31,746 nt of DNA from Candidatus Bathyarchaeia archaeon (GTDB taxonomy: Archaea; Thermoproteota; Bathyarchaeia; Bathyarchaeales; Bathycorpusculaceae), in NCBI GenBank assembly GCA_050012755.1, contig JBEKGO010000030.1:1-31746 (forward strand). Reading direction: 5' to 3'. Shown here piece after piece: positions 2,527 to 26,843 of this stretch (position 1 is the first letter of the stretch; each line of letters starts with the position of its first letter). The notes under the pieces are model-generated. The model was not told the origin of the DNA. It made no database searches and saw only the letters and a list, made by a program, of their open reading frames with translations. Position numbers and translations under genes: made by a program.

Positions 2527-2785
2527 GTTTTGCAAATTTGGATTTATTGCGTTAATCATTATATTCTTCACTTTTTTATGATTCCCTGTCTAAAGAAAAT
2601 GAAACCTATTAAATATTGTGACTTTTATGTTACAAATTATACTATTGGTGTTCCATTTGAGACAATAAGAAAATGGAAAGAATAATTAAAAATGAACAAC
2701 ATGCTTTACCAATTTCGGTTCAGCGATGATAGAATGGAAAAAAGATGGTGGTGTAGCTTCTTAGCTAACTACTTATCATCAAATT

Positions 2786-3304
2786 CTAGTGCGTAAATAG
2801 TGAGTCTGGCAGCGAAGGATTAAGAACAACGCTAGTGTATTGCGCAGTTTCCCCATTTGTTGAATGGTATGTATAGCTGCCTGAGCCACCGTAGCCTGAG
2901 AGGAAGGTTCTATAATCATCAAACGTGGTGCCCCAACTTGCAGCTTGACTTTGGTATTGGCTCGACAGATCAAGCCATTGCCCGTTTGTTTCCACCCAAA
3001 CCTTCTTCAATTCCCCATTTACGATGTAAACATAGTTGAAGCTTGAAGAAGTGTACTCCACGCGTATGTCAAGATTGGATCCCCCGATGTTCTTCCCATA
3101 ATACGTATATTCTACAGAAGGTGTTGAGCCACCTGTTGTCTTTACAGTGAACTGTAAACTCTTTGCTCCAGAAACACCAGAACCACCGCTTGTAGAAGAA
3201 CCCACGCCTCCTTTGCCACTAAAAGCTAAAAATAAGCCTACTGCCACGATGACGATTGCAACAGTTAAAATTGCCACAAAAATTAGCACTTTCTTACTAT
3301 TCAT
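2786..3304 (-). CDS. Membrane-anchored exported protein, possibly LolA-like fold
   Basis: MNSKK followed by a hydrophobic anchor, a Gly/Ser linker and a beta-rich domain ending NPSLPDSLF. Alternative start at 3343. Confidence 0.75.
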   Translation of the reverse strand: MNSKKVLIFVAILTVAIVIVAVGLFLAFSGKGGVGSSTSGGSGVSGAKSLQFTVKTTGGSTPSVEYTYYGKNIGGSNLDIRVEYTSSSFNYVYIVNGELKKVWVETNGQWLDLSSQYQSQAASWGTTFDDYRTFLSGYGGSGSYTYHSTNGETAQYTSVVLNPSLPDSLFTH

Positions 3305-3485
3305 TTTGTAAATGTTTATTTGCCGATTCGTTTCTGTTCCCATAAAAACTCCAATTTTCTAGTGAAATGGCAATTATATAAGAAAATGTGGTTGCTATCA
3401 TACAACATTTGCTGACATTTTCCATGTGCGGTTTCTTGGTTAAAGTTAAATATTGTTAGGAACTATTAAGGTATTGGTGTTGTGT

Positions 3486-3932
3486 TTGCCTATAACTCAA
3501 GTAAGTGTCTTTCTGGATAACCATCCAGGTTCCCTTTTTGATGTTATGTCAAAGCTTGATCAAAACAAGCTGAAAGTTTTCGCATTGTCAATTGCTGATG
3601 CAGGCGAGTTTGGCTTAGTGCGGTTGATAACTGAAGAGCCTGAGAAAGCAACTAAGTTTTTGGAAGATGCCGAATTTAACCTTGCCAAATCCAAGAAGAA
3701 CACGGAAGTAACGGCGATCTTTGTATCTGCTCAGGAAACGCTGTCAAAAATAACTAAGATTTTGGGAAACGGTGGCATAAACATAGAATACGCTTATTCA
3801 TCAGCTATTCACGTGGACGGCAAAGTCGCATTGATTTTGCGCCCAAGCAACGTCGAGAAAGCCGAACAAATGTTAACTGCTAACGGTGTTGTAGTTCTCT
3901 CGCTCGCTGAAATCAAGAAATATTTTCAATAA
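3486..3932 (+). CDS. Double ACT-domain protein
   Basis: QVSVFLDNHPGSL, ALSIADAGEFGLVRL and INIEYAY are typical of the ACT proteins found near phenylacetate-CoA ligases. Probable TTG start at 3486. Confidence 0.85.
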   Translation: MPITQVSVFLDNHPGSLFDVMSKLDQNKLKVFALSIADAGEFGLVRLITEEPEKATKFLEDAEFNLAKSKKNTEVTAIFVSAQETLSKITKILGNGGINIEYAYSSAIHVDGKVALILRPSNVEKAEQMLTANGVVVLSLAEIKKYFQ

Positions 3933-4065
3933 TTAGTCTCTCAATTGTTGGGGGAGCCACGCCACCGTTTTTTTATGATGTTAAGCTCCATAAAGTAATT
4001 AAATCGGACGATAAGGTTAATTTATCGCGCCAGATACGACGGGTATTCAGAAGGTTAAAGCCAGA

Positions 4066-6882
4066 ATGGGAACATTAAATCTTGATAAGATTTTCGACCC
4101 TCAAAGTGTAGCCATAGTCGGAGCTAGCGACGCAGAAGGTTCAGTTGGCTACGCAATTGTCAAAAATTTTACCAAACTGGGCTTCGCTGGTAAAGTTTAT
4201 TTTGTAAACATCCGAAAACCAGAAATTTTGGGCGTTAAAACTTACAAATCAGTCGATGAGATTCCAGAGCCAATTGATTTGGTGATGATTGCCACACCCG
4301 CCAAAACAGTTCCAGACGTTATGGAAGAATGTGGAAGGGCAAAAGTGAAAGGCGTCATCATTGTTTCTGCAGGATTCAAAGAAACTGGCCCCGCAGGAAA
4401 AGCTTTAGAAGAAAAGATTCTTGAAATCGCCAAAAAATATAACATCCGAGTTATTGGTCCAAACTGCATCGGTCTGATTCGACCACGAACAAACCTTAAC
4501 GCTACTTTTTTGGATAAAATGCCGAAACCGGGCAACGTAGCTTTTCTTTCACAAAGTGGCGCATTAGGCTCGGCGATTCTTGACTGGGCAATCCACGAAA
4601 ACATTGGCTTTAGCAATTTCGTTTCAGTTGGGTCAATGATAGATGTTGACTTTGGCGATCTCATTGATTATTTCGGTTCTGACCCAAAAACTAGAAGCAT
4701 ATTGATGTATATCGAAGGCATAACTGAAGCCCGCAAATTCATGAGCGCAGCAAGGCACTTTGCAAGAACCAAACCCATAATTGTGGTAAAATCAGGCAAA
4801 TTCGCAGAGAGTGCAAAAGCAGCAGCATCCCACACAGGTTCACTTTCCGGAGAAGATGATATTTATGATGCAGCTTTCAAACGTGCAGGCATTGTACGGG
4901 TCAATGAAATTGCTGACTTATTTAATTCTGCTGAAGTTTTGGGGACTCAACCTTTGCCTAAGGGTCCAAGACTTGCTGTAATAACTAATGCTGGTGGACC
5001 CGGCGTAATGGCAACAGACGCTTTGATTGCTCAAAACGGTAAATTGGCAAAGTTAAGCCAAAAATCGATAGATTCACTTAACGCGGTGCTGCCTCCTTTC
5101 TGGAGCCATGGTAACCCGGTTGATGTCTTAGGTGACGCAAAGTCTGAGCGCTACAAGGCTGCACTTGAAGCTTGCCTTAACGACGAAAATGTTGATGGCA
5201 TATTGATTATTTTTACGCAGCAGGCAGTTTCGGAATCAATTGAAATAGCTAAAAACATAGTTGAACTGGTGCGCAACAAGACTTACCAAAATAAAACCAT
5301 CTTAACCTCGTTTATGGGTTTTGGCGCAGTGCAAGAGGCAAACAGTATCCTGAACGCAAACAATATTCCCACTTATTCTACTCCTGAGCAAGCAATCAAA
5401 ACTTACATGTACATGTACGAATACCAGCGCAACATCGAACTCTTATACGAAACCCCTGAAGAGTTGCCAGTTGACGCCTCACCGCCCAAGCGCCCAATTA
5501 TGGTTATTTTGAGAAATGCTGCGTTTGAAGGGCGAGAAGTTTTAACTGAAGATGAAGCTAAAAAAGTACTCAAATACTATAATTTCCCAATCGTAAGAAC
5601 AGCAGCCGCTAACAACGTGGAAGAAGCAGTTACATTTGCCCAAGAAATGGGCTTTCCAGTCGTACTAAAAATTCTGTCACCCCAAATCATACATAAAACA
5701 GATGCAGGCGGAGTAATCCTAAACATCAACACACCAAACGAAGTACGCGAAGCTTTCGAAGTCCTAATCCAAAGAGCAACAGCCTACAACCCAAACGCCC
5801 AAATAATCGGCGTTACCGTTCAACCTATGATCGAAAAGAAAGGTCAAGAAATCATTATCGGCGGAAAAACTGACCCTGTTTTCGGTCCTGTAATACTCTT
5901 CGGCATGGGAGGCGTCGGCGTTGAACTTTTCAAAGATTACTCGATTGGTCTTCCACCTTTGAATACAACTCTTATTCACCGAATGATGGAAGAGACAAAA
6001 GTTTACCACTTGCTCAAAGGATATCGAGGTTCAAGTCCAGTTGACCTTAAAAAGCTCGACGAAACGATGTTGCTTTTCTCTCAGCTGCTTGTAGACTTCC
6101 CACAAATAAAAGAAATTGACATCAACCCCTTCTTGATAAGCGAAAAAGAGGCTTGCATCCTAGATGCCCGCATAGTAATTGACAAAGATGCAGTTTGCAA
6201 GAAATTTGATCCTCATGAACATATGGTCATCAGCCCTTACCCGAAAGGGCAGGAAATTCTGTGGCAACTGAAAAACGGTCAAGAAGTATTGCTGCGTCCA
6301 ATAAAACCTGAAGATGAACCTATGTGGCTGGAAATGTTCCAAAGCTTCTCAGAGGAATCAATACGATACAGATTTTTCCAGATGCTCAAAGATACACCGC
6401 ATGAAGTGCGGGTCCGCTACTGTAACATTGATTATGACAGAGAAGTTGCAATTGTTGCTGAAATTGTTGAAAACGGAAAAAGAAAAATCCTCGGTGTAAG
6501 CCGTGTTAGCATTGAAACTGACGGAAAAAGCAGTGAAATGGCTTTCATTGTAAGCGATTATTGGCAAGGACTAGGCTTAGGAACTAAAATGGTTGATTAC
6601 GCCCTTGACATTGCAAAGGAAAAAGGCGTTGAAAGCGTCTACGCAATCATGCTGCCTGATAATTACAGAGCTTTAAGTTTAACAAAGAAACTGGGTTTCA
6701 ACATTGATTACCTAAGCGACGGTACAGTCAAAGCAACACTTGACCTCAAAAATGAAGACGTTGATACAAGATGCCTGGTGACATTGCCTGAACCTCCCAA
6801 ACAACAACCAAAACAGCAATCTACCGCGGCGCCGCAAGAAAAAAAAGAAGTCAAAGAAGAGCCAGAAATAGCGCCAGCCTAA
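4066..6882 (+). CDS. ADP-forming acyl-CoA synthetase (alpha+beta) fused to a C-terminal GNAT acetyltransferase (Pat/PatZ-like architecture)
   Basis: CoA-binding AIVGAS, IGPNCIG, SQSGA, phospho-His motif SHTGSL, TNAGGPG, ATP-grasp HKTDAGGV and DINP, and GNAT acetyl-CoA motif WQGLGLG. Confidence 0.92.
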   Translation: MGTLNLDKIFDPQSVAIVGASDAEGSVGYAIVKNFTKLGFAGKVYFVNIRKPEILGVKTYKSVDEIPEPIDLVMIATPAKTVPDVMEECGRAKVKGVIIVSAGFKETGPAGKALEEKILEIAKKYNIRVIGPNCIGLIRPRTNLNATFLDKMPKPGNVAFLSQSGALGSAILDWAIHENIGFSNFVSVGSMIDVDFGDLIDYFGSDPKTRSILMYIEGITEARKFMSAARHFARTKPIIVVKSGKFAESAKAAASHTGSLSGEDDIYDAAFKRAGIVRVNEIADLFNSAEVLGTQPLPKGPRLAVITNAGGPGVMATDALIAQNGKLAKLSQKSIDSLNAVLPPFWSHGNPVDVLGDAKSERYKAALEACLNDENVDGILIIFTQQAVSESIEIAKNIVELVRNKTYQNKTILTSFMGFGAVQEANSILNANNIPTYSTPEQAIKTYMYMYEYQRNIELLYETPEELPVDASPPKRPIMVILRNAAFEGREVLTEDEAKKVLKYYNFPIVRTAAANNVEEAVTFAQEMGFPVVLKILSPQIIHKTDAGGVILNINTPNEVREAFEVLIQRATAYNPNAQIIGVTVQPMIEKKGQEIIIGGKTDPVFGPVILFGMGGVGVELFKDYSIGLPPLNTTLIHRMMEETKVYHLLKGYRGSSPVDLKKLDETMLLFSQLLVDFPQIKEIDINPFLISEKEACILDARIVIDKDAVCKKFDPHEHMVISPYPKGQEILWQLKNGQEVLLRPIKPEDEPMWLEMFQSFSEESIRYRFFQMLKDTPHEVRVRYCNIDYDREVAIVAEIVENGKRKILGVSRVSIETDGKSSEMAFIVSDYWQGLGLGTKMVDYALDIAKEKGVESVYAIMLPDNYRALSLTKKLGFNIDYLSDGTVKATLDLKNEDVDTRCLVTLPEPPKQQPKQQSTAAPQEKKEVKEEPEIAPA

Positions 6883-7088
6883 ATGCAAAAGCCTAATTTC
6901 TCTCTCTTTATCATGAAACTTATTTTTTGCTTAGCCATAAAATAACTATTTTTAGGCCTAAGTTAAACGGTTAATTGTTTTTGCAAAAACTTTCGCATAT
7001 GGCATCAATGCTTTGCTGTATCCTTTTATATTTCGTGCTTCTGTAAATCTTGAGAAAGTGTGAAAAGAACACTGCCGGAGGATAATTC

Positions 7089-7577
7089 TTGGAAAAAGAT
7101 AAACGGCGTTCAATGCTGGAGAAAACTCTTAAAGAACATAATTATCAGGAAAGCTCTCTTTTAGAAATATTGCATAGTGCTCAAGAAATTTATGGATATT
7201 TGGATAAAGATCTGCTTATCGATATTTCTGCTTCGCTGAATCTTCCTCCAAGCCACGTTTATGGAGTTGTGACTTTCTATAGTTTCTTTAAACTTAGAAA
7301 GCAAGGCGACCATGTTGTAACTGGATGTCTAGGTACAGCCTGCTATGTTAAAGGTGTTGAACAAATCATGGAAGCCATTGAGCAAGAATTCAACCTCAAA
7401 CGAGGAGGCTCCACCACTGATGGCAAACTATCCTTACTTTTGACTCGTTGTATTGGGGCATGCGCTATGGCGCCAAATATAGTTGTTGATGATGAAGTAA
7501 TTGGAAGAGCAACCACAGACGTGGTAATTCAAAAAATCAAAAATGTACTCGGAGGAGTTAAATCTGAAACTAGATGA
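7089..7577 (+). CDS. hoxE: NuoE-like [2Fe-2S] subunit of a bidirectional hydrogenase
   Basis: VYGVVTFYSFF, CLGTACYVKG and CIGAC. GGAGG SD with TTG start. Confidence 0.88.
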   Translation: MEKDKRRSMLEKTLKEHNYQESSLLEILHSAQEIYGYLDKDLLIDISASLNLPPSHVYGVVTFYSFFKLRKQGDHVVTGCLGTACYVKGVEQIMEAIEQEFNLKRGGSTTDGKLSLLLTRCIGACAMAPNIVVDDEVIGRATTDVVIQKIKNVLGGVKSETR

Positions 7578-9216
7578 TTTGCATAGCATAGTTACGCAAG
7601 AACTTGAATTCCAAAGAGCCTATAAATACCGCATTAACGTATGCTGCTCAAGCGGGTGCGTCCCATTCGGAGCCTTTAAAGTTCTTAAAGCCTTCGAGGA
7701 TGCTGTCAAAGAATTTGGCGTCGACAAGGAATGTAAGGTTGCCCGTACAGGTTGTGTCGGTACCTGCGCTGTTGCTCCTGTTGTGCTTGTTGAGCCAGGT
7801 GACTACTTATACCAAAGCGTTAGCTCAGAAAGAGTGCGGGAAATAGTTCGCGACCATATCGTTTTAGGATTACCAGTAAAAGACATGCTCTACAAGAACC
7901 AAGCGTACTTCCAAAAGCAGCATCGGCTGGTCCTTCGTAACGCGGGAAAAATTGATCCTTCCAGAATTCAAGACTACATTTCAGTAGGCGGCTACTCTGC
8001 TATCGTTAAGTGTTTAGCAACTATGACTCCACAAGGAGTAATTTATGAAGTTATAACAAGCGGTCTCAGAGGACGTGGCGGTGCAGGTTTTCCAACAGGG
8101 CAGAAATGGAGTCTTGTAGCAAGAGCCCAAAACAAACCTAAGTACATAGTTGCCAACCTTGATGAGGGCGATCCAGGCGTTTTTGCTAACCGAACACTCG
8201 CTGAAGCTGATCCACACGCTATTATTGAAGGCATGCTTATTGCAGCTTACGCGACAGGTGCACAGAAAGGCTACATTTACATTCGTTCTGAATATCCACT
8301 TGCTATTCAAACCCTTCAAAAAGCCATTGTTCAAGCAAAGGCTATGACGCTTTTAGGCGAAAACATTTTGGAAACACCCTTCAAGTTTGACCTTGAACTA
8401 CGATTCGGAGCAGGGGCATTCGTTGCCGGAGAAGAAACCGCTATTTTGGCTTCAGTTGAGGGTCGCAGAGCAATGCCTCGTCCCCGTCCACCATACCCAG
8501 CTAACTCAGGCTTGTGGCAGAAACCGACGCTCATCCAGAACGTGGAAACCTTAGCTAACATCCCGCTCATTATTCAGAACGGCGGCTTGTGGTTCCAAAA
8601 ACTGGGAACACCTAAATGCAGCGGAACAAAATGCTTCTCATTAACGGGCAAAGTAAATAATCCTGGACTTATCGAAGTTCCAATGGGCATAAGCCTTAGA
8701 GAAGTCGTTTTTGAAATCGGCGGCGGAGTACCAGACGGCAAAAAATTCAAAGCAGTTCTCGTCGGCGGTCCATCAGGCGGTTGTCTCCCAGAAACACTCC
8801 TTGAATCACCAATTGACTATGACTCGTTAACAAAGGTTGGAGCAATAATGGGGTCAGGCGGCATAGTAGTACTTGATGAAGACTCATGCATGGTTGACAC
8901 TGCAAGGTTCTTCACTGAATTTTGTATTGACGAATCCTGTGGGAAATGCACCCCATGTCGAGCAGGGTTAGCACGAGTTAAGGAAGTCTTTGACAAGATT
9001 ACCCACGGTCAAGGCGAAATGACTGACATCACTACTCTAGAGAAATCCAGCGTTTTCATAAGAGAAGCCAGCCTTTGTGGTCTTGGCCAAACAGCACCAA
9101 ACCCCGTGATAACTACGCTGCGTTACTTCAAAGACGAATATGTTAAACATATTTCTGAGAAGCAGTGTGATGCTGGGAAATGTTTCAAAACTAGAGACGA
9201 GGAGGAAGAAGCATGA
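7564..9216 (+). CDS. hoxF: NuoF-like FMN/NAD-binding diaphorase subunit
   Basis: N-terminal CCSSGC and GCVGTC, GLRGRGGAGFPTG, DEGDPG, GEETA, ESCGKCTPCR and SLCGLG. Probable CTG start at 7564, 8 nt after GGAGG; the ORF track uses ATG 7543. Confidence 0.9.
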   Translation: MKLDDLHSIVTQELEFQRAYKYRINVCCSSGCVPFGAFKVLKAFEDAVKEFGVDKECKVARTGCVGTCAVAPVVLVEPGDYLYQSVSSERVREIVRDHIVLGLPVKDMLYKNQAYFQKQHRLVLRNAGKIDPSRIQDYISVGGYSAIVKCLATMTPQGVIYEVITSGLRGRGGAGFPTGQKWSLVARAQNKPKYIVANLDEGDPGVFANRTLAEADPHAIIEGMLIAAYATGAQKGYIYIRSEYPLAIQTLQKAIVQAKAMTLLGENILETPFKFDLELRFGAGAFVAGEETAILASVEGRRAMPRPRPPYPANSGLWQKPTLIQNVETLANIPLIIQNGGLWFQKLGTPKCSGTKCFSLTGKVNNPGLIEVPMGISLREVVFEIGGGVPDGKKFKAVLVGGPSGGCLPETLLESPIDYDSLTKVGAIMGSGGIVVLDEDSCMVDTARFFTEFCIDESCGKCTPCRAGLARVKEVFDKITHGQGEMTDITTLEKSSVFIREASLCGLGQTAPNPVITTLRYFKDEYVKHISEKQCDAGKCFKTRDEEEEA

Positions 9217-9920
9217 CCGTTAATCAAATCAAACTCAAGATTGACGGAGTTGACGTTACAGTTCCTGAAGGCACATCAATTTTGAAAGCAGCAAGAGATA
9301 GTGGCCTGATAATCCCAACTCTCTGCAATGTTGAAGGATTAACTGCCTATGGCGGCTGCCGATTGTGTCTTGTAGAAATTGGCGGTAACCCGAAACTTTT
9401 TTCAGCCTGTACAACCCCAGTCGGCCAAGGAATGGAAGTAATCACTCATTCTCCTAAACTGAACGAGTACCGTAAAATGGTGATACAAATGCTACTTGCT
9501 GAACGGACTCATATATGCTCGGTATGTGTAGCCAACGACCATTGTGAACTGCAAGCTATGGCAAACCAGCTTGGCGTTGACCATGTTATGTTTGAACGTA
9601 ACTGGAGTCATGACGAAGTCGATTCAACTCATGACTTTCTTGTTATTGATCGGAACAGATGCATTCTTTGTACCAGATGCATTAGGATTTGTGACCAAAT
9701 AGAAGGCGTTCACACGCTTGACCTCAAACTCCGAGGCAAAGACTCTCAGGTCATCATGGACCTTGACGAACCTTGGGGCAAATCTTGCTCCTGCACATCA
9801 TGCCGCAAATGCGCAAAAATTTGCCCAGTCGGCGCCATCTACATTGAAGGAGAACCCATTGACTACACCAAAAACAAAGATATTGCAGAGTTTATTATGA
9901 CGAGGAGGAGCCGTAAATGA
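9213..9920 (+). CDS. hoxU: NuoG-N-like Fe-S diaphorase small subunit
   Basis: IPTLC, GGCRLCLVE, HICSVC, RCILCTRCIRIC and CTSCRKCAKICP. Confidence 0.9.
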   Translation: MTVNQIKLKIDGVDVTVPEGTSILKAARDSGLIIPTLCNVEGLTAYGGCRLCLVEIGGNPKLFSACTTPVGQGMEVITHSPKLNEYRKMVIQMLLAERTHICSVCVANDHCELQAMANQLGVDHVMFERNWSHDEVDSTHDFLVIDRNRCILCTRCIRICDQIEGVHTLDLKLRGKDSQVIMDLDEPWGKSCSCTSCRKCAKICPVGAIYIEGEPIDYTKNKDIAEFIMTRRSRK

Positions 9921-10459
9921 CCGCAGACGCCAAAGTTAGGGTAGCAACTGTTTGGCTCAGCGGCTGCTCAGGATGCCACATGTCCTTCCTTGACCAAGAC
10001 GAACGGCTTATTGATTTAGCTAAAAAAATAACTTTGGTTTACAGTCCTATCGCGGACATTAAAGAATTCCCAGAAAACGTAGACGTCACGCTCATCGAAG
10101 GTGCCGTTGCAAATGACGAGCAACTTGCAATGTTAAGGAAAGTTAGAGCAAGAACAAAAATCCTTATTTCGCTAGGCGACTGCGCCACAACCGGAAACGT
10201 TACCGCTCTGCGAAATTCATGGCGACACAGTGACCAAGCGGTTCTGGAGCGGGCATACAAAGATCCGTCCGACTTAAACGCTGCCATCCCCACTGCCGTG
10301 CCTAAACTGCTCATCCATGCTCGTCCATTGCATGAAATGGTTAAGGTTGACTTTTTTATTCCAGGGTGTCCACCGCCTGCAGACCTCATAAATTATGTGT
10401 TAACTGAATTGTTGGTTGGGCGAACACCAGTTATGGAGGGAAGATCAAAATATGGTTAA
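9917..10459 (+). CDS. hoxY: [NiFe] hydrogenase small subunit, short one-cluster type
   Basis: ATVWLSGCSGCHMSFLD, GDCA and PGCPP in a 180-aa protein. Confidence 0.9.
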   Translation: MTADAKVRVATVWLSGCSGCHMSFLDQDERLIDLAKKITLVYSPIADIKEFPENVDVTLIEGAVANDEQLAMLRKVRARTKILISLGDCATTGNVTALRNSWRHSDQAVLERAYKDPSDLNAAIPTAVPKLLIHARPLHEMVKVDFFIPGCPPPADLINYVLTELLVGRTPVMEGRSKYG

Positions 10460-11894
10460 AGTGCAAACAGAAAAGAAAATTTCTATCAGCCCAGTCTCTC
10501 GCATTGAAGGGCATGCTCAAGTAACCATTTTGCTTAACGAGGATGACTCAGTAAAAGAAGCACTATTCAAAGTAGTTGATTTCCGCGGATTCGAAAAATT
10601 CACTGAAGGCAGACCATTCTACGAGATGCCAAGCATAACATCAAGAGCCTGCGGCATCTGCCCAGTCAGCCACCTATTAGCTTCAGCCAAAGCATGTGAC
10701 GCGATCGTCGGGGTAAACCCGCCAAAAACAGCCATAATGCTAAGACGCTTAATGCATATGGGACAACTAATCCAATCACACGCCTTAAACTTCTTCCATC
10801 TCTCATCACCCGACCTACTACTAGGATTCGACTCTGATCCAGCGCAAAGAAACATTTTCGGCTTAATCGAAAAGCAGCCTGAACTAGCCATGCGAGGCAT
10901 AAAACTCCGCAATTACGGACAAGAAATAATCGAAAAAATCGCCGGTAAACGCATTCACTCAAGCGAATGGATACTGCCAGGCGGCGCAAAATGGCCACTT
11001 ACAGCGGAAAGAGCCGACTACCTTCGCGCCAATCTGCCTGCAGCACTAGAGAGCACTCAGGAAACGTTGTCAATGTACAAGAAAATGCTGGATGGGTTTG
11101 AGGAAGAAATTGAAAACTTCGGCAATTTCCCAAGCTACTACATGGGTTTAGTTACGGGTAATGGAGGGCTCGAACATTATGACGGCACACTTACTATCGT
11201 TGATAATAGAGGCAAAGTTGTTGCACAATGCGTTGACCCAACAACATATCAAGCATTCATAGGTGAAGCTGTTGAATCTTGGTCTTTCATGAAGTTTCCA
11301 TACTTCAAATCAGTCGGGTATCCAGACGGCGCATATAGGGTTGGACCATTAGCAAGACTTAATGTCGCTTCTCACTGTGATACAAATCTTGCAGACCAAG
11401 AGCTCAAAGAATTCAAGAGGCTAGGCAAAAACGGGATTGTGCAGAGCACATTTCACTATCACTATGCTCGATTGATTGAACTGCTGTTCTGCCTTGAAAC
11501 GGCTAAGAATCTGCTTGAAGACCCAGAAATTCTCTCTGAACATGTTACATCAAAAGCTCTCGTCAACAACTACGAAGGTGTCGGAGTGGCTGAAGCCCCC
11601 AGAGGCACACTGATTCACCACTACAAGGTTGACGCACAGGGCATAATAACATGGAACAACATGATAATTGCAACAGAACACAATAACATCGCCTACAACA
11701 TGGCAATAACGCAAGTAGCCAAAAAATATGTCAAAGCAAAACAACTTGAAGAAGGTATGCTAAACCGTGTAGAAGCGGTCATACGCGCCTTCGACCCATG
11801 CCTAAGCTGTGCCACACACGCAATCGGCAAAATGCCCTTAGAAATAAAACTGTTTAATTCAGATGGCAAAATAATTGACTGCAAAATAAGATAA
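10452..11894 (+). CDS. hoxH: [NiFe] hydrogenase large subunit (group 3d-like)
   Basis: RIEGH, L1 motif [15 protein letters not shown], and L2 motif DPCLSCATH followed by a cleavable extension. Confidence 0.9.
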
Positions 11895-11897
11895 ATC

Positions 11898-11921
11898 CTT
11901 TTTTATTTTGCTTTTTTTTTT
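11898..11921 (+). terminator. Oligo-T terminator after hoxH
   Basis: Long T tracts immediately after the stop codon. Confidence 0.55.
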
Positions 11922-12151
11922 CATATTAAGCTAATAGAGAAACGCATTAACTGATATTGTTCAGAAACTCCTAAGTCGATATAGCAGCAACAAACCCTAA
12001 TTATCCTCAAAAACAACATATTTTCAGTAACCTTCCCATGGAAATGTTATAGTTCACATGGAAGAACACCTAAGACTTTAGTGAAGATTTATGTATTTGT
12101 ATAGGGAATTCAAAAAGTAAAATAAGCTATTACCTGAGGAAAGTGAACAAT

Positions 12152-12712
12152 TTGACTGTGCCAGCTTCAACAACTCCATCAGGCAAAGAGCCGATAAAAG
12201 CTTCTGAGCTAGATCCCAAATTCAAGTATGAACTCTTAAAAATACATGGAAGCGAAAAAATACTCAAATGTTTTCAGTGCGGAACATGCACCTCCGATTG
12301 CCCGGTTGCAAGATACAGCGACAGTTACCGCCCAAGAACTTTAATCCACATGGCTCAACTTGGCCTTAGAGACCGGGTGCTGAAAAGCGACACATTATGG
12401 TTATGCGCAGCCTGTTTCACATGCACAGATCGATGTCCACAAGACGTTGAAGTAGCTAATGTTATTCGGGTCTTTCGAAATTTAGCCGTTGAAAGCGGCT
12501 GCATACCTCAAGTATTCAAAGACCAAACTGCATCCCTGCTTGAATCAGGTTACGCTTACAAGATTCCCGAGCTAAGGGTAAAAAAACGTGAATCCCAATG
12601 TTTGCCGCCGCTTCCAAAAGGCAACCCCGAAAATGTGCGAAAAGTGCTGAAAGGCGTAAAATTCGTTGAAACCGTCCAGAAACCAGCAGGAGGACAACCA
12701 GCTGGCCAATAA
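12152..12712 (+). CDS. hdrC: Heterodisulfide reductase subunit C
   Basis: CFQCGTCTSDCP and WLCAACFTCTDRCP. Start is TTG 12152 or GTG 12143. Confidence 0.9.
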   Translation: MTVPASTTPSGKEPIKASELDPKFKYELLKIHGSEKILKCFQCGTCTSDCPVARYSDSYRPRTLIHMAQLGLRDRVLKSDTLWLCAACFTCTDRCPQDVEVANVIRVFRNLAVESGCIPQVFKDQTASLLESGYAYKIPELRVKKRESQCLPPLPKGNPENVRKVLKGVKFVETVQKPAGGQPAGQ

Positions 12713-13595
12713 ATACCTAATTTTTCTCGGATGTGCTATTCCTTACCGTGTTTCAGCCTACGAAATTTCCGCTCGCAAAGTCCTTGCAAAACTCGGCGTT
12801 GAATTGGTTGAAATGCCTGAATTCAACTGCTGTGGTTTGCCATTAGATCCAGTCAGTCATGAAATGATGCTTATTTTAGCAGCAAAAAACTTGGCGATGG
12901 GGGAGCAAATAGGCTTAAACATTCTGACGCTTTGTCCAGGTTGCGCTGGTACATTAAAGAAAGTTAATAAAACTCTAAAAGAGGATAAAGCTCTGAAAGA
13001 GCAAATTAATGGTCACCTCAAAGAAGTAGGATTAGAATTCAAAGGAACCATTGAAACAAAACATCTCCTTCAAATGTTAAAAGAAGATGTTGGAGTAGAA
13101 AAAATTAAAGCATCTGTTGTAAAGCCGCTTACTATGCTTAAAGTCGCTGAACACAACGGCTGCCACATCTTAAGACCTAAAGAATACATTGGCTTTGACG
13201 ACCCTGAAGATCCACAAACACTAAAAATGCTCATCGAAGCCACTGGCGCCACATGCCTAGATTACATCGACGAAACAGAATGTTGCGGAGCACCAAGCGT
13301 CGGAGTCAGCGACAAAATCGCCTTACAACTAGCCAGAGACAAACTAAGTCACGTTAAAATGGTTGAGGCTCAAGCGTTAATCACAATTTGCCCATTTTGC
13401 CATATTATGTATGATACAAATGAGTTGCGGATAGAGAAAATGTTTAGTGAAGTCTATGGCATCCCGATTCTCCATTACCCACAACTGCTCGGGTTAGCGA
13501 TGGGTTTAACACCAGAAGAATTAGCCTTCAACGAACTCCGAGTCAACGCATCAAAAATACTAAAACAGATAGCTGAGGAAGGCAACAAGCAATGA
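12702..13595 (+). CDS. hdrB: Heterodisulfide reductase subunit B
   Basis: Two CCG domains: FLGC/NCCG/CPGC and HNGCH/ECCG/CPFC. Probable CTG start 8 nt after GGAGG. Confidence 0.92.
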   Translation: MANKYLIFLGCAIPYRVSAYEISARKVLAKLGVELVEMPEFNCCGLPLDPVSHEMMLILAAKNLAMGEQIGLNILTLCPGCAGTLKKVNKTLKEDKALKEQINGHLKEVGLEFKGTIETKHLLQMLKEDVGVEKIKASVVKPLTMLKVAEHNGCHILRPKEYIGFDDPEDPQTLKMLIEATGATCLDYIDETECCGAPSVGVSDKIALQLARDKLSHVKMVEAQALITICPFCHIMYDTNELRIEKMFSEVYGIPILHYPQLLGLAMGLTPEELAFNELRVNASKILKQIAEEGNKQ

Positions 13596-14581
13596 GCAAA
13601 AACAAATTAAAAATAGCGTTTTACTGGGCTGCAAGCTGCGGCGGCTGCGAAATAGCCGTTTTAGACTTAAATGAAAAAATCCTTGATGTAGTACAATTAG
13701 CCGACATTGTTTTTTGGCCAGTAGCCATCGACATCAAATACAAAGATGTTGAAGCAATGCCTGAAAAATCCATTGATATAACATTCTTTAACGGTTCAAT
13801 ACGCAATTCAGAGCAAGAACACATGGCAAAGGTTTTGAGAGAAAAATCAAAAACTCTGGTTGCTTTCGGTTCATGCGCTCACCAAGGAAGCGTGCCTGGA
13901 CTAGCAAACTTAAATGACAAGAAAGAAATTTTCGATCAAGTTTACATAAAAGACAAATCAAACATTAACCCACAAGCAACTACGCCAAAAACTCAAACTC
14001 AAGTGAAAGAAGGCACACTTAGAATTCCAGAATTCTACGACACGGTAAAGACCCTAGCACAAACAGTCGACGTCGACTATTACTTGCCCGGTTGCCCGCC
14101 ACCAGTCAAACTAATTGCTGCCGCAGTAGATGCGATAGCAAGCAACAAACTGCCCCCGAAAGGCTCAGTTCTCGCACCGCTCAAAGCAGTATGCGACGAA
14201 TGCCCAAGAAAACGGGAAAACAAAAAAATCGACAAAATCTACCGAGTCTACGATAAAGCTCCTGAACCAGAAAAATGTCTACTTGAACAAGGTATCCTCT
14301 GCTTAGGACTTGCCACTAGAAGCGGATGCGGCGCTCAATGCTTAAACGTTGACATGCCATGCACAGGATGCGGTGGACCAGCTCCAAACGTGCCTGAGCA
14401 AGGAGCGGCAATGATTAGCGCTTTAGCATCTATACTTGGATACGAAGGCGAACCTGGCAAAGCAAATTACACTGAGAAAGAGATTGAAGAACTGCTCAGT
14501 CAAGTCAAAGACCCAGTTGGAACATTCTATATGTATAGTTTACCTGCTTCAATTCTGAAAAGAAAAGTGATCAGAAAATGA
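13592..14581 (+). CDS. mvhG: F420-non-reducing (group 3c) hydrogenase small subunit
   Basis: YWAASCGGCE, FGSCA, PGCPP, VCDEC, CLLEQGILCLG, CGAQC and PCTGC. Confidence 0.9.
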   Translation: MSKNKLKIAFYWAASCGGCEIAVLDLNEKILDVVQLADIVFWPVAIDIKYKDVEAMPEKSIDITFFNGSIRNSEQEHMAKVLREKSKTLVAFGSCAHQGSVPGLANLNDKKEIFDQVYIKDKSNINPQATTPKTQTQVKEGTLRIPEFYDTVKTLAQTVDVDYYLPGCPPPVKLIAAAVDAIASNKLPPKGSVLAPLKAVCDECPRKRENKKIDKIYRVYDKAPEPEKCLLEQGILCLGLATRSGCGAQCLNVDMPCTGCGGPAPNVPEQGAAMISALASILGYEGEPGKANYTEKEIEELLSQVKDPVGTFYMYSLPASILKRKVIRK

Positions 14582-16050
14582 AAGAAATTGTTATAGATCC
14601 AATTACGCGTCTTGAAGGACATGGAAACGTATCCATATTCCTAAATGACAAAGGCGAAGTAGAAAACGCGTATCTTAAAATTCCTGAACTAAGAGGATTC
14701 GAGAAATTCTGCATTGGCAGAAGAGCCGAACTCATGCCTCAGTTAACCACAAGAATTTGCGGTGTCTGCCCAGTCGCTCATCACTTTGCAGCAACAAAAG
14801 CCCTAGACGCAGCCTTCAACGTTGAACCGCCATCAGCAGCAAAGAAACTGCGCGAACTCATGTACAGCGCCTACTTCATCTATGATCACACTTTGCACTT
14901 CTATTATCTCGGTGGACCAGACTTCATTGTTGGACCGGATGCACCGCCAGAAAAACGCAACATCCTCGGCGTTATCGAAAAAGCAGGCATGCCAGTTGCA
15001 AAAGAAGTCATAAAACACAGAGCTTACGGCCAAAAAATGACTGAAATCATCGGGGGAAAAGCAACCCACCCAGTCTGTGGATTACCTGGCGGAATTTCCA
15101 AATCACTAACTGAGACCAACAGGCAAGAAATCGAAACAATGGCAACTTCATGCGTAGGCTTCGCCCAGTTCACGCTAAAACTTTTCCATGACATTGTTTT
15201 AGGCAACACCAAATACCTTAACATGATCAAGAGCCAAGCCTATACCATGCCCACCTACTACATGGGCACTGTTGACCAAAACAACAAAGTCAACTTTTAC
15301 GACGGCAAAATCCGCGTTGTTGACCCATCGGGCAAAGAATTTCTAAAGTTCGAATCGAAAGATTACCTCAAACACATCGGAGAACACGTTGAAGAATGGA
15401 CATACAGCAAATTCCCTTACCTAAAAGCAGTCGGTTGGAAAGGACAAGTTCCGGGAAAAGACAGCGGCATCTACCGCGTCGGTCCATTGGCACGATTAAA
15501 TGCTTCAGATGGTATGGCAACAACGCTTGCACAAGCAGAATACGAAGTTATGTACAAGACGCTTGGCGGCAAACCAGTCCACAGCACCTTGGCTTTCCAC
15601 TGGGCGCGGCTAATTGAGCTTCTTTATGCAACTGAAAGAGCAATGGAGTTGGTTAAAGATCCAGAAATCACCAGTACAAATGTCCGTAACCAGCCAGGCG
15701 AACCAGGCGAAGGCGTCGGCATCACAGAAGCAGCAAGAGGCACACTCATCCACCACTACACGTTAGACAAAGATGCGCTTGTCAAAGACGTAAACCTGAT
15801 TGTTGCAACAACAAACAATTACCCAGCAATCTGCATGAGCATACGCGACGCAGCAAAAGGCTTAATCCACAACGGAAAAATTGACCAAGGCATACTCAAC
15901 ATGGTTGAAATGGCTTTCCGAGCTTACGACCCATGCTTCGGATGCGCAACACACGTTGCAATCGGGCAAATGCCACTAACCTTAGAAGTCTTCAACGCCC
16001 AAAAACAATTAGTCAGCACTGTAAGCCGTTGGATTAGCCATTTTTCCTAA
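14578..16050 (+). CDS. mvhA: F420-non-reducing (group 3c) hydrogenase large subunit
   Basis: IDPITRLEGH, RICGVCPVAH, EAARG and DPCFGCATH. Cys form, with no in-frame UGA. Confidence 0.9.
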   Translation: MKEIVIDPITRLEGHGNVSIFLNDKGEVENAYLKIPELRGFEKFCIGRRAELMPQLTTRICGVCPVAHHFAATKALDAAFNVEPPSAAKKLRELMYSAYFIYDHTLHFYYLGGPDFIVGPDAPPEKRNILGVIEKAGMPVAKEVIKHRAYGQKMTEIIGGKATHPVCGLPGGISKSLTETNRQEIETMATSCVGFAQFTLKLFHDIVLGNTKYLNMIKSQAYTMPTYYMGTVDQNNKVNFYDGKIRVVDPSGKEFLKFESKDYLKHIGEHVEEWTYSKFPYLKAVGWKGQVPGKDSGIYRVGPLARLNASDGMATTLAQAEYEVMYKTLGGKPVHSTLAFHWARLIELLYATERAMELVKDPEITSTNVRNQPGEPGEGVGITEAARGTLIHHYTLDKDALVKDVNLIVATTNNYPAICMSIRDAAKGLIHNGKIDQGILNMVEMAFRAYDPCFGCATHVAIGQMPLTLEVFNAQKQLVSTVSRWISHFS

Positions 16051-16147: not shown

Positions 16148-16621
16148 TTGAAGAGTCTTGTTGTTTATTATTCCCGAACAGGTAACGCGCGATTTGTTGC
16201 CGAAACTATAGCGACAGAAGTCGGTGCTGACATCGAAGAAGTTATCGACCTAAAGAAACGAAGTGGTCCGATTGGTTTTTTCAGTGGCGGTTCTGATGCA
16301 AGAAGAGGCAAAGAAACTGAAATATCACCAACCACAAAATCACACTCTGACTACGATCTCGTTATCGTTGGAACCCCTGTTTGGGCTAGTAGACCAAGCC
16401 CTGCTATTGTCACCTATCTGAAGAAGAATGACCTTTCAGGAAAGAAAGTTGCCCTTTTCTTCACCCGTTCAGGCAAAAAACCTACGGCTTTCGACGAGAC
16501 TAAAGCTTTAATTCCAAATTCTAACTTTATTGGTCAACTCTCATTGATTAACCCTTTAGCTACCAAAGATGAATCTGAAAAACAAATCAGAACTTGGTGT
16601 AAAACACTAACAGAGGCTTAG
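16148..16621 (+). CDS. Flavodoxin family protein
   Basis: YYSRTGNA FMN loop and VIVGTPVW. Confidence 0.85.
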   Translation: MKSLVVYYSRTGNARFVAETIATEVGADIEEVIDLKKRSGPIGFFSGGSDARRGKETEISPTTKSHSDYDLVIVGTPVWASRPSPAIVTYLKKNDLSGKKVALFFTRSGKKPTAFDETKALIPNSNFIGQLSLINPLATKDESEKQIRTWCKTLTEA

Positions 16622-16733
16622 TTACCGAGGATTCCGCAATTGTTTTACGGTAAACTTTTGAAAACCCTAACATTTCAGGGTAAACCCTTATGTGAGTACA
16701 GAGCTCTTCCTAATCTTGTACGTTGGATGTGAA

Positions 16734-17093
16734 ATGCAACCGCAACCACCTAACCCCGAACATAAAAGAATGAAACGCGAGAAAAAAACCATAGGGTACA
16801 TGGTCGAAATCTACTGCAAAGGCCACCACAAAACACATGGCAAATTATGCCCCGAATGCACGGAATTCAAAGAATACGCGTTTATGCGCCTTGACAAATG
16901 TCCTTTCCAAGACAAAAAAAGCACATGCGGCAAATGCATAATTCACTGCTACCGCCCGGACATGAAAGAAAAAGCAAAGAAAGTGATGCGTTATTCAGGT
17001 CCACGCATGCTTGTGCATCACCCGGGTTTAGCGTTGCATCATGCTTGGGATAGCCATCGAAAGCCTCCACACCTTGCCAAGAAAGCAAACTAG
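16734..17093 (+). CDS. YgbA / nitrous oxide-stimulated promoter family Cys-rich protein
   Basis: REKKTI, YC, LCPEC, RLDKCP, KSTCGKCIIHCY and VMRYSGPRM. Confidence 0.85.
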   Translation: MQPQPPNPEHKRMKREKKTIGYMVEIYCKGHHKTHGKLCPECTEFKEYAFMRLDKCPFQDKKSTCGKCIIHCYRPDMKEKAKKVMRYSGPRMLVHHPGLALHHAWDSHRKPPHLAKKAN

Positions 17094-17197: not shown

Positions 17198-17683
17198 ATG
17201 GCAAATGAAATCAAAAAAGAGCTTGAAAACTGGTTTAGTAGTGCGAAAAGAATTGTCTTAGCAGGGATTGGCAACCCAATTCGAACGGACGATTACTTAG
17301 GATTAAAAATAATCGAACAATTGAAAAGTAAATTGCCAGCAACCGTTCTTTTGCTCGAAGCTGAAACAGTCCCAGAAAGCTACCTCTTAGACATAGAGGA
17401 GTTTAAGCCCACGCATGTGCTACTTATCGATGCTGCCAGTTTAGGTTTACATCCTGGAGAGGCTATTCTTGTTGATGCCGAACAAATCGCGGATTACCCT
17501 GCTATAACGACTCATCTGTTGCCTCTGAACATTTTTTGCGAGTATGTTAGGCAGACGACTGGAGCAAAAATTGCTTTGCTATTGGTTGAACCGAAGAGTA
17601 TGGAATTCGGTGAAGGCTTAACCTTGGAAGTTCAAGCGGCGGCGGAACGATTAACAAAAATATTGGCTGAATTGCTTGGTTAA
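17198..17683 (+). CDS. Hydrogenase maturation endopeptidase (HycI-like)
   Basis: GIGNPIRTDD, ETVPE, LIDAA and TTHLLPL. Confidence 0.88.
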   Translation: MANEIKKELENWFSSAKRIVLAGIGNPIRTDDYLGLKIIEQLKSKLPATVLLLEAETVPESYLLDIEEFKPTHVLLIDAASLGLHPGEAILVDAEQIADYPAITTHLLPLNIFCEYVRQTTGAKIALLLVEPKSMEFGEGLTLEVQAAAERLTKILAELLG

Positions 17684-19457: not shown

Positions 19458-20555
19458 GTGTTAACCGAAAAAATTAAACAAGTAATAAAAAAATACAAAA
19501 CCAAAGAGATTCGCATAGGTGTTTTAGGCTCACATTCAGCACTTGAAATTGCTTCAGGCGCAAAACAGGAAGGTTATGAAACTGTTGTCGTATGCCAAAA
19601 AGGCAGAGATAAAACCTATACAAAATATTACAAAAACGTTTTTGATCATGTACTTATGCTGGACAGGTTCTCGGAGATAACAAGCGGGGCAAACGTTAAG
19701 AAACTTGTTGAGTTGAACACCATTTTTGTTCCTAACCGCTCATTTTCAGTTTATGCTGGTTATAAGGACATAGAGAACCAGTTTGCTGTACCATTAATGG
19801 GAAACCGATCAATGCTGCGAACCGAAGAGCGCAATACACCCAGAAACCAGCTTTACCTGCTTCAAAAAGCTGGAATAGCAACGCCTCAAACCTTCAAGTC
19901 ACCAAGCGAAATTGACCGACTAGCAATTGTAAAAGTTCCAGAAAGAGAACGAGCCATTGAACGAGCATTTTTCTACGCTTCTTCCCCTGAAGAGTACGAA
20001 AAAACGGCGCAAAAACGCATAAAACAAGGTATAATCACCGCTGAAGCGCTGAAAAACTCAGTTATAGAAGAGTATGTTATCGGCGCCAAATTCAACGCCA
20101 ACCTGTTTTGGTCACCTTTAACTGATGAAATTGACCTCTTGGGCTTTGATAGGCGCATTCAAACAGACCTCGACGGCATCTTAGACCTACCTGCTCAAGA
20201 ACAGCTAGAGCTAAACATTCCAACTCAAAACATAGAAATCGGACACATGGGCGCAACTATGCGTGAGAGCCAAATAGAAAAAATCTTTGTTGCAGCAGAA
20301 AAATTCGTTAACACTTGCAAAAAAGAGTACCCGCCGGGAATGCTGGGCTTGTTCGCGCTTCAAGGCGCTATTACGAAGGATTTGAAGTTCTATGTTTTCG
20401 ATGTTAGCCCCCGAGTTCCAGGCTGCCCCTGTGTTGAGCCTACTTCGCCTTACATGAAGTACAAGTATGGTATGGAAGTCGGTCCAGGCAGACGTGTTGC
20501 TATGGAAGTCAAACGTGCAGTTAAAGAGGGCAGACTTGCGGAAGTAGTAACATGA
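19458..20555 (+). CDS. PurP-family ATP-grasp protein, divergent paralogue
   Basis: LGSHSAL, VPNRSF, GNR and DRRIQ. Visibly paralogous to the next gene. Confidence 0.85.
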   Translation: MLTEKIKQVIKKYKTKEIRIGVLGSHSALEIASGAKQEGYETVVVCQKGRDKTYTKYYKNVFDHVLMLDRFSEITSGANVKKLVELNTIFVPNRSFSVYAGYKDIENQFAVPLMGNRSMLRTEERNTPRNQLYLLQKAGIATPQTFKSPSEIDRLAIVKVPERERAIERAFFYASSPEEYEKTAQKRIKQGIITAEALKNSVIEEYVIGAKFNANLFWSPLTDEIDLLGFDRRIQTDLDGILDLPAQEQLELNIPTQNIEIGHMGATMRESQIEKIFVAAEKFVNTCKKEYPPGMLGLFALQGAITKDLKFYVFDVSPRVPGCPCVEPTSPYMKYKYGMEVGPGRRVAMEVKRAVKEGRLAEVVT

Positions 20556-21637
20556 TAACCAACCAAGACATCTGCAAAATAATCGAGCAATATGACCAGA
20601 AAAAACTGGCCATAGGTACGTTGGGCTCACACAGTTCCCTGAACATTTTCAAAGGTGCCAAAGAAGAGGGCTTTCGCACGGTTTGCATCTGCAAAGAAAA
20701 AGACGCCATAATGTACAAGAAATACCCTCTCGTAGACGAATTAATCATTGTTAAGGACTTCACTGAACTCCTAAACGAGAAAATGCAGGATAAACTGCGT
20801 AAGCTAAATGTGGTTTTGGTTCCACACGGTTCATTCACAGCATATCTTAGCACCGAACAGTTAACGGACAGCCTTTTGGTGCCAATGTTTGGAAACCGCC
20901 AGCTCCTCCATTGGGAGGCAAACCGCAAATCCCAAGAAGAATGGCTACGCCAAGCAGGACTCCGTTTACCGGCAACTTTCAAAACTCCTGAAGACATAGA
21001 CCGCTTAGTCATCGCCAAGCTGCCAGGAGCCAAAGGCGGAAGAGGCTACTTTTTAGCTAACTCACCCAAAGCCTTCTACAAAAAATTCAAAGAACTGGTT
21101 CAACGAGGTTTGCTAAAAGAAACGGATTTGGCAGGTATTCACTTGCAAGAATATGCCCTTGGCGTTAACGTTTACCCCAGCTACTTCAGCTCAATCATAA
21201 ATGATGACGTAGAGTTGCTGGCAATGGATAGGCGCTATGAATCGGCTGTGGATTCAATTGGAAAAATTCCAGCAGCCGAACAGCTTGAAATAGAGGTTAA
21301 TCCCACGTACACAGTGGTCGGCAACTTTCCTATAGTTCTCCGTGAATCTCTGCTGCCTGAAATGATGCGCATGGGAGACAGCGTACACAAAAAAGCCAAG
21401 GAGCTTGCGCCGCCAGGAATCATTGGCCCATTCTGCCTAGAAACCGTTATTACTGATGACTTGAAAATTTTCGCCTTCGAAATCTCAGCCCGCATCGTTG
21501 CAGGAACAAACGTCGGCATTGGCACATCGCCCTACGCTTACTTGAAATACGGTGAGAACATGTACATGGGCAGACGCATAGCTGTAGAAATAAAACAAGC
21601 AATTCAACAGAAGAGACTGCCCGACATTTTAGCTTAA
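20552..21637 (+). CDS. purP: FAICAR synthetase (formate-dependent, ATP-grasp)
   Basis: LGSHSSL, VPHGSF, GAKGGRGYF, DRRYES, GPFCLE and EISARIVAGTN. Confidence 0.9.
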   Translation: MITNQDICKIIEQYDQKKLAIGTLGSHSSLNIFKGAKEEGFRTVCICKEKDAIMYKKYPLVDELIIVKDFTELLNEKMQDKLRKLNVVLVPHGSFTAYLSTEQLTDSLLVPMFGNRQLLHWEANRKSQEEWLRQAGLRLPATFKTPEDIDRLVIAKLPGAKGGRGYFLANSPKAFYKKFKELVQRGLLKETDLAGIHLQEYALGVNVYPSYFSSIINDDVELLAMDRRYESAVDSIGKIPAAEQLEIEVNPTYTVVGNFPIVLRESLLPEMMRMGDSVHKKAKELAPPGIIGPFCLETVITDDLKIFAFEISARIVAGTNVGIGTSPYAYLKYGENMYMGRRIAVEIKQAIQQKRLPDILA

Positions 21638-26705: not shown

Positions 26706-26784
<79 letters not shown>

Positions 26785-26843
26785 CTAAACTCTTAGAGCA
26801 GCTGCAGATGGGGGAAGCTAACTCGCAACAAAATCACAAAAAC

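Follow-up and report, generated by a model that had tools for sequence, protein, structure and literature searches.

A widespread hdrCB-mvhGA operon of Bathyarchaeia whose MvhD and HdrA partners are probably encoded elsewhere

The window analysed here, a 31,746-nucleotide (nt) stretch of contig JBEKGO010000030.1 from a Candidatus Bathyarchaeia archaeon, carries the genes of a Hox hydrogenase and, downstream on the same strand, an hdrC-hdrB-mvhG-mvhA operon that pairs heterodisulfide reductase genes with hydrogenase genes and contains neither hdrA nor mvhD. The window features described below between 4066 and 21637 lie on the + strand. The hdrC-like gene (12143-12712) encodes a protein of 189 amino acids (aa) with two [4Fe-4S] motifs that matches 8rvv_C at 9e-29, and it is followed by an hdrB-like gene for a protein with two CCG domains (12666-13595; 9sfi_C, 3.4e-68), an mvhG-like gene for the hydrogenase small subunit (13592-14581; 329 aa; 5odc_E, 8.7e-68) and an mvhA-like gene for the large subunit (14578-16050; 490 aa; 5odc_F, 1.7e-109). 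An earlier note on this DNA had described the hdrB stop as overlapping the mvhG start, and reading the sequence places the shared ATGA exactly at 13592-13595; mvhG and mvhA overlap by 4 nt in the same manner. A gene for a hycI-type hydrogenase maturation endopeptidase, presumably acting on MvhA, lies further downstream (17198-17683; PF01750, TIGR00072). At the other end of hdrB, the open reading frame (ORF) drawn from TTG at 12666 overlaps hdrC by 47 nt, and the hdrB of relatives starts at the position equivalent to 12702, which in the window is a CTG preceded by GGAGGA; the true start, TTG 12666 by the ORF rule or CTG 12702, is uncertain from the sequence.

The four proteins retain the cofactor ligands expected of their families. 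HdrC scores 119 bits against TIGR03290, below the cut-off of 160, and its two [4Fe-4S] motifs are formed by C43, C46, C49, C53, C88, C91, C94 and C98, which are invariant in 69/69 orthologues from the related loci described below. HdrB matches PF02754 in two stretches and TIGR03288 at 277.9 bits (below the cut-off of 345); the CX(n)CCX(n)CXXC pattern of a CCG domain occurs twice, and C23, C55, C56, C90, C93, C166, C206, C207, C242 and C245, together with C197, are invariant in 64/64 orthologues. MvhG aligns over residues 6-322 with 5odc_E, that is, over its full length, and has the MvhG architecture of a proximal cluster followed by a C-terminal two-cluster domain, with 12 cysteines for three [4Fe-4S] clusters that are invariant in 63/63 rows; it is some 20-30 residues longer than its solved counterparts, by short insertions only. 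MvhA, which also matches 7t2r_D at 5.6e-115, has the N-terminal RICGVC and C-terminal DPCFGC Ni-Fe motifs with both CxxC ligand pairs, and C61, C64, C453 and C456 are present in 71/71 orthologues. No extra domain was seen in the structure and domain matches of any of the four proteins. The hydrogenase encoded within 12143-17683 matches Mvh, Vhu and soluble group 3 enzymes, and a Pfam scan of this interval found no membrane subunits, so the arrangement is not that of a group 4 hydrogenase with HdrBC. Among the matches listed, the closest MvhG relatives are 79-92% identical and those with names belong to Candidatus Bathyarchaeota or MCG-6; more than 120 protein clusters stand at 79% identity or above. 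On these matches and motifs, the identification of the genes as hdrC, hdrB, mvhG and mvhA in the first reading is correct.

The same reading had held that neither hdrA nor mvhD appears elsewhere in the window, and the ORF scans and a six-frame search agree on this point. Pfam and NCBIfam scans of the 31 non-nested ORFs of the window found no protein with the MvhD domain (PF02662) and none of HdrA type, a six-frame scan of the whole window with an MvhD-domain hidden Markov model (HMM) and an HdrA query, both derived from relatives, returned neither MvhD nor HdrA, and tblastn of the window for the two proteins gave only noise at E > 0.2. Within the window, nothing qualifies as MvhD by PF02662 or as HdrA.

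The conservation of the operon was examined in a single scan of species-representative genomes with the MvhG-like protein of the window, which yielded 390 loci, and the best 80 of the 390 (76-96% identity, nearly all labelled Bathyarchaeota or Bathyarchaeia) were analysed; 76 of them, with at least 900 nt of sequence upstream of mvhG, could be assessed for hdrCB. In 71 of these 76 loci, mvhG is immediately preceded by hdrC and hdrB, both of them intact ORFs by the thresholds used in 69, which indicates that the hdrCB-mvhGA arrangement is not due to chance. The remaining five are L045, with hdrC and a truncated hdrB, and L018, L027, L036 and L054, with neither gene. The overlap between hdrB and mvhG is exactly 4 nt in 37 of the 69 loci. 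Within 3.5 kb downstream of mvhA, hycI was found in 62/80 loci, a flavodoxin-like gene in 30/80 and ygbA in 21/80, and from the counts for hdrCB and hycI the conserved unit comprises hdrC-hdrB-mvhG-mvhA and hycI. A theme of stress genes around the operon (msrB, nitroreductase, cupin, OsmC) was considered and set aside, as it is a syntenic block in only 13-17 of the 80 loci and not general. One locus, L049, contains in addition to its main copy a second, diverged hdrC-hdrB-mvhG copy upstream of hox (12-2404), 71-77% identical to that of the window and followed by a fragment of an ACS-GNAT gene.

The mvhD and hdrA genes were sought in the related loci by Pfam scans of ORFs unmatched to window proteins and by HMM search. 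Among the best 80 loci, MvhD domains were found in five and HdrA in two, and only in L025 and L053 do mvhD and hdrA stand beside an orthologous hdrCB-mvhGA. In L053, the most divergent locus, nine genes form one tight operon (2635-13047) in which a gltD-like gene (2635-4368; 577 aa, with a C-terminal Fer4 pair), a gene for an FlpD-domain protein (4370-5125; 251 aa), hdrA (5127-8150; 1007 aa) and mvhD (8147-8587) precede hdrC (8584-9111), hdrB, mvhG, mvhA and hycI; the product may be an NAD(P)H-linked Mvh-Hdr assembly. In L025, whose MvhG is 91% identical to that of the window, mvhD, an hdrA of 1006 aa, an FlpD-domain gene and a second hdrA-like pair lie upstream on the opposite strand, with about 1 kb between hdrC and the nearest divergent gene of the mvhD/hdrA group. 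MvhD of the relatives matches 5odc_D at 4.6e-58 and their HdrA matches 5odc_A at 3.9e-219 in three stretches, and judged by these alignments the neighbours in L053 and L025 are genuine MvhD and HdrA. A quick maximum-likelihood tree built on MvhG+MvhA (70 rows; 11 loci lacking an adjacent full-length ORF pair were omitted) groups the window with L038, L001, L002, L008, L003, L014 and L020 in a starred clade of 8 rows, adjoined by a starred 11-row clade that includes L025, so the state with adjacent hdrA and mvhD occurs among close kin of the window.

A second context for mvhGA was found in L018, L027 and L054 (L018:8835-16492, L027:8835-16407, L054:8826-16281), where hdrCB is missing and a thioredoxin-reductase-like gene lies upstream. 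Downstream are genes for a polyferredoxin-MvhD fusion of 410 aa and for a PyrK-like Fe-S protein with a GltD-like protein, a pair that is Nfn-like or sulfide-dehydrogenase-like. L018 shares a contig with L057, and the mvhGA copies of the two loci are 98.7% identical over 2615 nt; the identity begins some 195 nt ahead of mvhG, at a point that in L057 falls within the 3′ end of hdrB. Because the copies are nearly identical, essentially the same MvhGA is found both behind hdrCB and beside a gene with an MvhD domain. In a library clustered at 50% identity, 2 of 16 long MvhG relatives are MvhD-MvhG fusions, and none of the 16 has a CCG, HdrB or HdrC domain fused to MvhG. The HdrA of about 1006 aa has no fewer than 120 protein clusters at an identity of at least 76%, the named ones being Bathyarchaeota, and HdrA-MvhD fusions are common in the protein collection, with examples named Bathyarchaeota. 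The only contig common to the listed HdrA and MvhG matches (best 120 hits) and the locus contigs was that of L025 itself, a result that counts neither way.

The Hox genes of the window occupy 7089-11894 in the order hoxE (7089-7577; PF01257), hoxF (7543-9216; Pfam and NCBIfam), hoxU (9213-9920), hoxY (9917-10459; Pfam and NCBIfam) and hoxH (10416-11894, stop at 11892-11894). HoxE and HoxU are the best NCBIfam matches of their proteins though below the cut-offs (195.9 bits against 224 and 308.6 bits against 333). The best solved match of HoxH is 7t2r_D (1.3e-155, 522.1 bits), followed by 5xf9_D, and that of HoxF is 7t2r_B (659.8 bits, residues 4-536 of 597). The structure 7t2r is that of the electron-bifurcating NiFe-hydrogenase from Acetomicrobium mobile. 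HoxF of the window ends at the equivalent of residue 536 and so is without the C-terminal part of the 7t2r_B chain, presumably the two-cluster ferredoxin domain needed for bifurcation. The gene order, a HoxF with flavin mononucleotide- and NADH-binding domains and a minimal HoxY are those of group 3d, and by these features hoxEFUYH encodes a NAD-linked, group 3d-like [NiFe] hydrogenase with a diaphorase module. HoxEFU is thus encoded upstream of hdr-mvh on the same strand, as the earlier note had it, with a 248-nt spacer between hoxH and hdrC.

This adjacency is largely not conserved in relatives, an outcome that the earlier note had named as refuting its proposal. With at least 6.5 kb of upstream sequence available in 68 of the 80 loci, hoxH was found upstream on the same strand in 19/80, and once, in L042, downstream and reversed; in the MvhG+MvhA tree, rows with hox upstream make up 16 of the 24 in the wider clade of the window (support 81) and elsewhere include L046 only. 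In L010 and in L038, the nearest relative of the window, further ORFs separate hoxH from hdrC. In L003, L020, L045, L062, L070 and L071, the position of Hox is taken by a different hydrogenase, 24-28% identical to MvhG/MvhA and accompanied by a 638-aa Fer4_22/FAD/NAD-binding protein (for example L003:4271-8307), and the same cluster occurs together with Hox in L005, L009, L017, L067 and L068; this hydrogenase of L003 and the ten other loci looks group 3b-like.

Downstream of the hoxH stop, T-runs are read directly at 11899-11904 (T6), 11906-11909 (T4) and 11912-11921 (T10). Oligo-T runs act as terminators in archaea, and these runs are archaeal-terminator-like. Alignment of the 160 nt upstream of hdrC from 70 loci and the window (71 rows) gave the consensus A.GGAAGAAT...CTGAA..TTTAT, which at least 70% of rows share, among them those of hox-less loci such as L079. 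In the window, the conserved block spans 12056-12095, with ACATGGAAGAAC at 12056-12067 and, about 50 nt upstream of the start of hdrC, the TATA-like TTTATGTA at 12088-12095; it is probably the promoter of hdrC itself. A ATGGAAGAAT-like motif about 20 nt upstream of the TATA-like element, present in at least 70% of the 71 upstream regions, could be the site of a regulator. A scan for sigma-70 promoters and hairpin terminators returned fewer sites than shuffled sequences; being inapplicable to archaea, it was not used. Given the T-runs and a conserved block that is also found in hox-less loci, hox and hdr-mvh look like separate transcription units, in line with the suggestion that the T-tract after hoxH separates transcripts. 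The hoxEFUYH genes thus look like a separately transcribed neighbour, limited to one clade and lying outside the complex in a loose cluster of genes for H2 metabolism.

The HdrC, HdrB, MvhG and MvhA of the window align full length with their counterparts in MvhADG-HdrABC (5ODC, 8RVU/9SW2), with the ligands kept. According to the relevant section of PMC3087415, mvhDGAB, hdrA and hdrBC form three separate, non-adjacent units in Methanothermobacter, and hdrA is unlinked in most methanogens. As in the methanogen hdrCB unit, hdrC precedes hdrB in the window; unlike in methanogen Mvh clusters, no mvhD precedes mvhG and no mvhB polyferredoxin gene follows mvhA, and unlike in the methanogen layout, hdrCB is joined with mvhGA in one operon. 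The host, too, differs in being a non-methanogenic Bathyarchaeon, and the HdrA of its relatives, at about 1006 aa, matches 5odc_A in three stretches. For Bathy-6 metagenome-assembled genomes from termite guts, Table S2 of PMC7886697 gives FlpD (MvhD)-domain hdrA gene numbers far from those of the adjacent hdrB and hdrC, and a passage of the same paper says that one Bathy-6 genome encodes MvhADG and HdrABC, the identity of the heterodisulfide being unclear. For a complete Bathy-6 genome, a figure legend in PMC11697101 lists 'MvhD/hdrA: 2887', 'MvhB: 2886' and 'HdrCB: 2744-2745'. A survey of HdrA types, PMC12054007, states in an excerpt that mvhADG belongs to the type III hdrA cluster in Bathyarchaeota; L053, which unites a GltD-like protein, a large HdrA, MvhD, HdrCB and MvhGA, fits this statement, whereas the window and 70/72 related loci hold the hdrCB-mvhGA part only.

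Hydrogenases of group 4 that occur with HdrBC and without HdrA, namely Ehd (Methanomethylicia), Ehe and Drh (Methanocellales), are described in part of PMC9723716, where direct heterodisulfide reduction is proposed for group 4 hydrogenases next to HdrBC. Like these, the [NiFe] hydrogenase of the window is encoded beside HdrB and HdrC in a cluster that lacks HdrA; unlike these membrane-type enzymes, it is of the soluble Mvh type, with a small subunit that matches MvhG over its full length. The section on Hox in PMC7886697 places subgroup 3d in Bathy-6, with bathyarchaeal HoxH sister to the Hox of phototrophs, and the HoxEFUYH described there has the same five genes in the same order as in the window; that section draws no link to hdr-mvh, and the adjacency seen in the window is clade-limited. 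A literature search, which was not exhaustive and left subscription journals outside, found no published description of a Bathyarchaeia hdrCB-mvhGA operon without mvhD.

The earlier note had offered two explanations, that HdrA and MvhD are supplied in trans or that HdrCB is wired directly to MvhGA or to HoxEFU in a new way. The analysis favours supply in trans, and direct wiring of either kind found no support. We judge, with a probability of about 0.65, that hdrCB-mvhGA encodes an ordinary MvhAG-HdrBC module of an Mvh-Hdr complex whose MvhD and HdrA come from genes at other sites, mvhD in this lineage travelling with hdrA and not with mvhG. This is favoured because L053 and L025 have mvhD and hdrA beside an orthologous hdrCB-mvhGA, because even the archetypal complex of methanogens is split over three unlinked units in the account of PMC3087415, because Bathy-6 genomes list an MvhD-domain hdrA apart from hdrCB in the table and legend cited (PMC7886697 Table S2; PMC11697101), and because HdrC, HdrB, MvhG and MvhA retain every cofactor ligand, without variation among the orthologues. 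The place of L025 in a clade next to that of the window, the near-identical mvhGA copies of L018 and L057, the two MvhD-MvhG fusions, and the many clusters of the large HdrA and the HdrA-MvhD fusions named Bathyarchaeota point the same way. The hdrC-hdrB-mvhG-mvhA genes would then be a self-contained operon with its own promoter, followed by hycI, coding for MvhAG as the hydrogenase half of the complex and for HdrBC as its disulfide-reducing half, and MvhD, with a [2Fe-2S] cluster, and the large HdrA flavoprotein (about 1006 aa, or an HdrA-MvhD fusion) would join in trans. Electrons from H2 would pass from the Ni-Fe site of MvhA through the three MvhG clusters and MvhD to the flavin of HdrA and be split there, one branch leading to ferredoxin and the other through HdrC and the non-cubane clusters of HdrB to a disulfide. 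The genes, their intact cofactor motifs, their conservation and the neighbouring mvhD and hdrA of two relatives are direct observations; complex assembly, bifurcation and substrate are what we infer here. A multimer structure prediction for MvhG with HdrC scored 0.01 against a mark of 0.32 and, run without controls, counts neither way.

Several observations weigh against supply in trans. In 70/72 loci with hdrC and/or hdrB upstream, the flanking sequence analysed (up to 10 kb) contains neither mvhD nor hdrA, the tight start-stop overlap of hdrB and mvhG is unlike the methanogen layout with mvhD before mvhG, and both hdrCB and mvhD are missing around the mvhGA of L036. For the source organism, the scan for mvhD and hdrA covered the window, and we infer their presence elsewhere. 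Many natural fusions of MvhD to HdrC/HdrB-like domains, about 530 aa long, occur in the protein collection, which makes HdrA-less routes into CCG-type reductases conceivable. In these fusions (for example P0394, P0398 and P0483), MvhD is joined to an HdrC-like Fe-S domain and HdrB-like CCG domains, a wiring that sets MvhD directly on a CCG reductase and dispenses with HdrA; one of them carries the name Methanomassiliicoccales and another, a partial sequence, Bathyarchaeota. The L036 cluster (L036:3479-8887) consists of mvhGA and hycI with TFIIB and SUI1 genes upstream, a hydrogenase pair on its own.

In a rival reading, HdrCB and MvhGA make up a soluble, non-bifurcating H2:disulfide oxidoreductase of four subunits in which the distal cluster of MvhG passes electrons directly to HdrC, without MvhD, the HdrA flavin or ferredoxin reduction. 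Such an enzyme would suit translationally coupled genes kept as a unit in 71/76 assessable loci, 70 of them (72 with L045 and L060 counted) lacking mvhD and hdrA in reach, and this reading has to be reckoned with because 70/72 related loci show no connector within reach; the reaction would be downhill, from -414 mV for H2 to -140 mV for CoM-S-S-CoB (values given in the relevant part of PMC3087415), and the same has been proposed for group 4 hydrogenases with HdrBC and without HdrA (Ehd, Drh), according to the passage in PMC9723716. We nevertheless consider it unlikely, as L053 and L025 carry mvhD and hdrA with an orthologous hdrCB-mvhGA, near-identical mvhGA copies stand behind hdrCB in L057 and beside an MvhD-domain gene in L018, the 16 long MvhG relatives include two MvhD-MvhG and no HdrB/HdrC-MvhG fusions, and the four proteins contain no additional domain that could stand in for MvhD. 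A version in which the operon of most carriers encodes this minimal soluble H2:disulfide reductase, independent of HdrA and MvhD and with MvhG feeding HdrC, L053 and L025 representing an ancestral or alternative bifurcating form, is likewise improbable; if true, the minimal enzyme would use H2 to keep a pool of thiols reduced, in redox repair for instance, without bifurcation.

We also consider it quite unlikely that MvhGA is a movable cassette serving several partner sets through any MvhD-domain protein, such as the polyferredoxin-MvhD fusion with Nfn-like subunits, and that its adjacency to hdrCB reflects co-regulation rather than a fixed complex of HdrABC type. The 98.7% identical mvhGA copies in two contexts on one contig, the start of the copied segment inside the 3′ end of the L057 hdrB, the solitary mvhGA of L036 and the extra hdrC-hdrB-mvhG copy of L049 all fit such a cassette, but the coupling of hdrB to mvhG is kept in most loci and L053 has hdrA, mvhD, hdrCB and mvhGA in one transcription unit. 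That HoxEFU replaces HdrA and MvhD in a Hox-Hdr-Mvh assembly linking H2, NAD(H) and a disulfide is very improbable. It draws on the direct adjacency on the same strand in the window and on the hox genes upstream in two thirds of the wider clade (16/24); against it stand the presence of hox upstream in only 19/80 loci, the ORFs between hoxH and hdrC in L010 and L038, the other hydrogenase with its 638-aa protein in the position of Hox in six loci, the T-runs after hoxH, the promoter-like block of hdrC shared with hox-less loci and the fact that Hox has a hydrogenase dimer of its own, HoxYH.

Between mvhA and hycI lie two accessory neighbours, a flavodoxin-like gene (16148-16621; PF12682), probably on a separate transcript because T-runs and a TATA-like stretch precede 16148, and a gene for a cysteine-rich protein of the YgbA_NO family (16692-17093; PF11756, 4.8e-41). 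Upstream of hox is a gene for an ADP-forming acyl-CoA synthetase-GNAT fusion (4066-6882; 938 aa; Pfam and NCBIfam), with CoA-binding, ligase and ATP-grasp domains and a C-terminal GNAT acetyltransferase, which is kept upstream of hox in relatives. Downstream of hycI, Pfam and NCBIfam scans identify purE, purC and two purP genes. The two tandem purP-like genes (19458-21637) have a stop/start overlap and are kept as a pair in many relatives; the second passes the NCBIfam cut-off (599 against 590 bits) and the first falls below its own (309 against 556). A tRNA-Met (CAT) at 26708-26784 overlaps the 5′ end of a family-less ORF at 26751-27329, and the call of this ORF is doubtful because of that overlap.

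Bathyarchaeia are among the most abundant archaea of anoxic sediments, peat and soil, and their handling of H2 and low-potential electrons has been argued from gene lists. In this group, hdrCB-mvhGA is a tightly conserved operon of very wide distribution, with 390 relatives found across species genomes, and the connector genes appear to move independently of it. For annotation, this means that an operon without hdrA and mvhD should not be read as the absence of the complex, and that a Hox neighbourhood should not be read as a Hox-Hdr complex.

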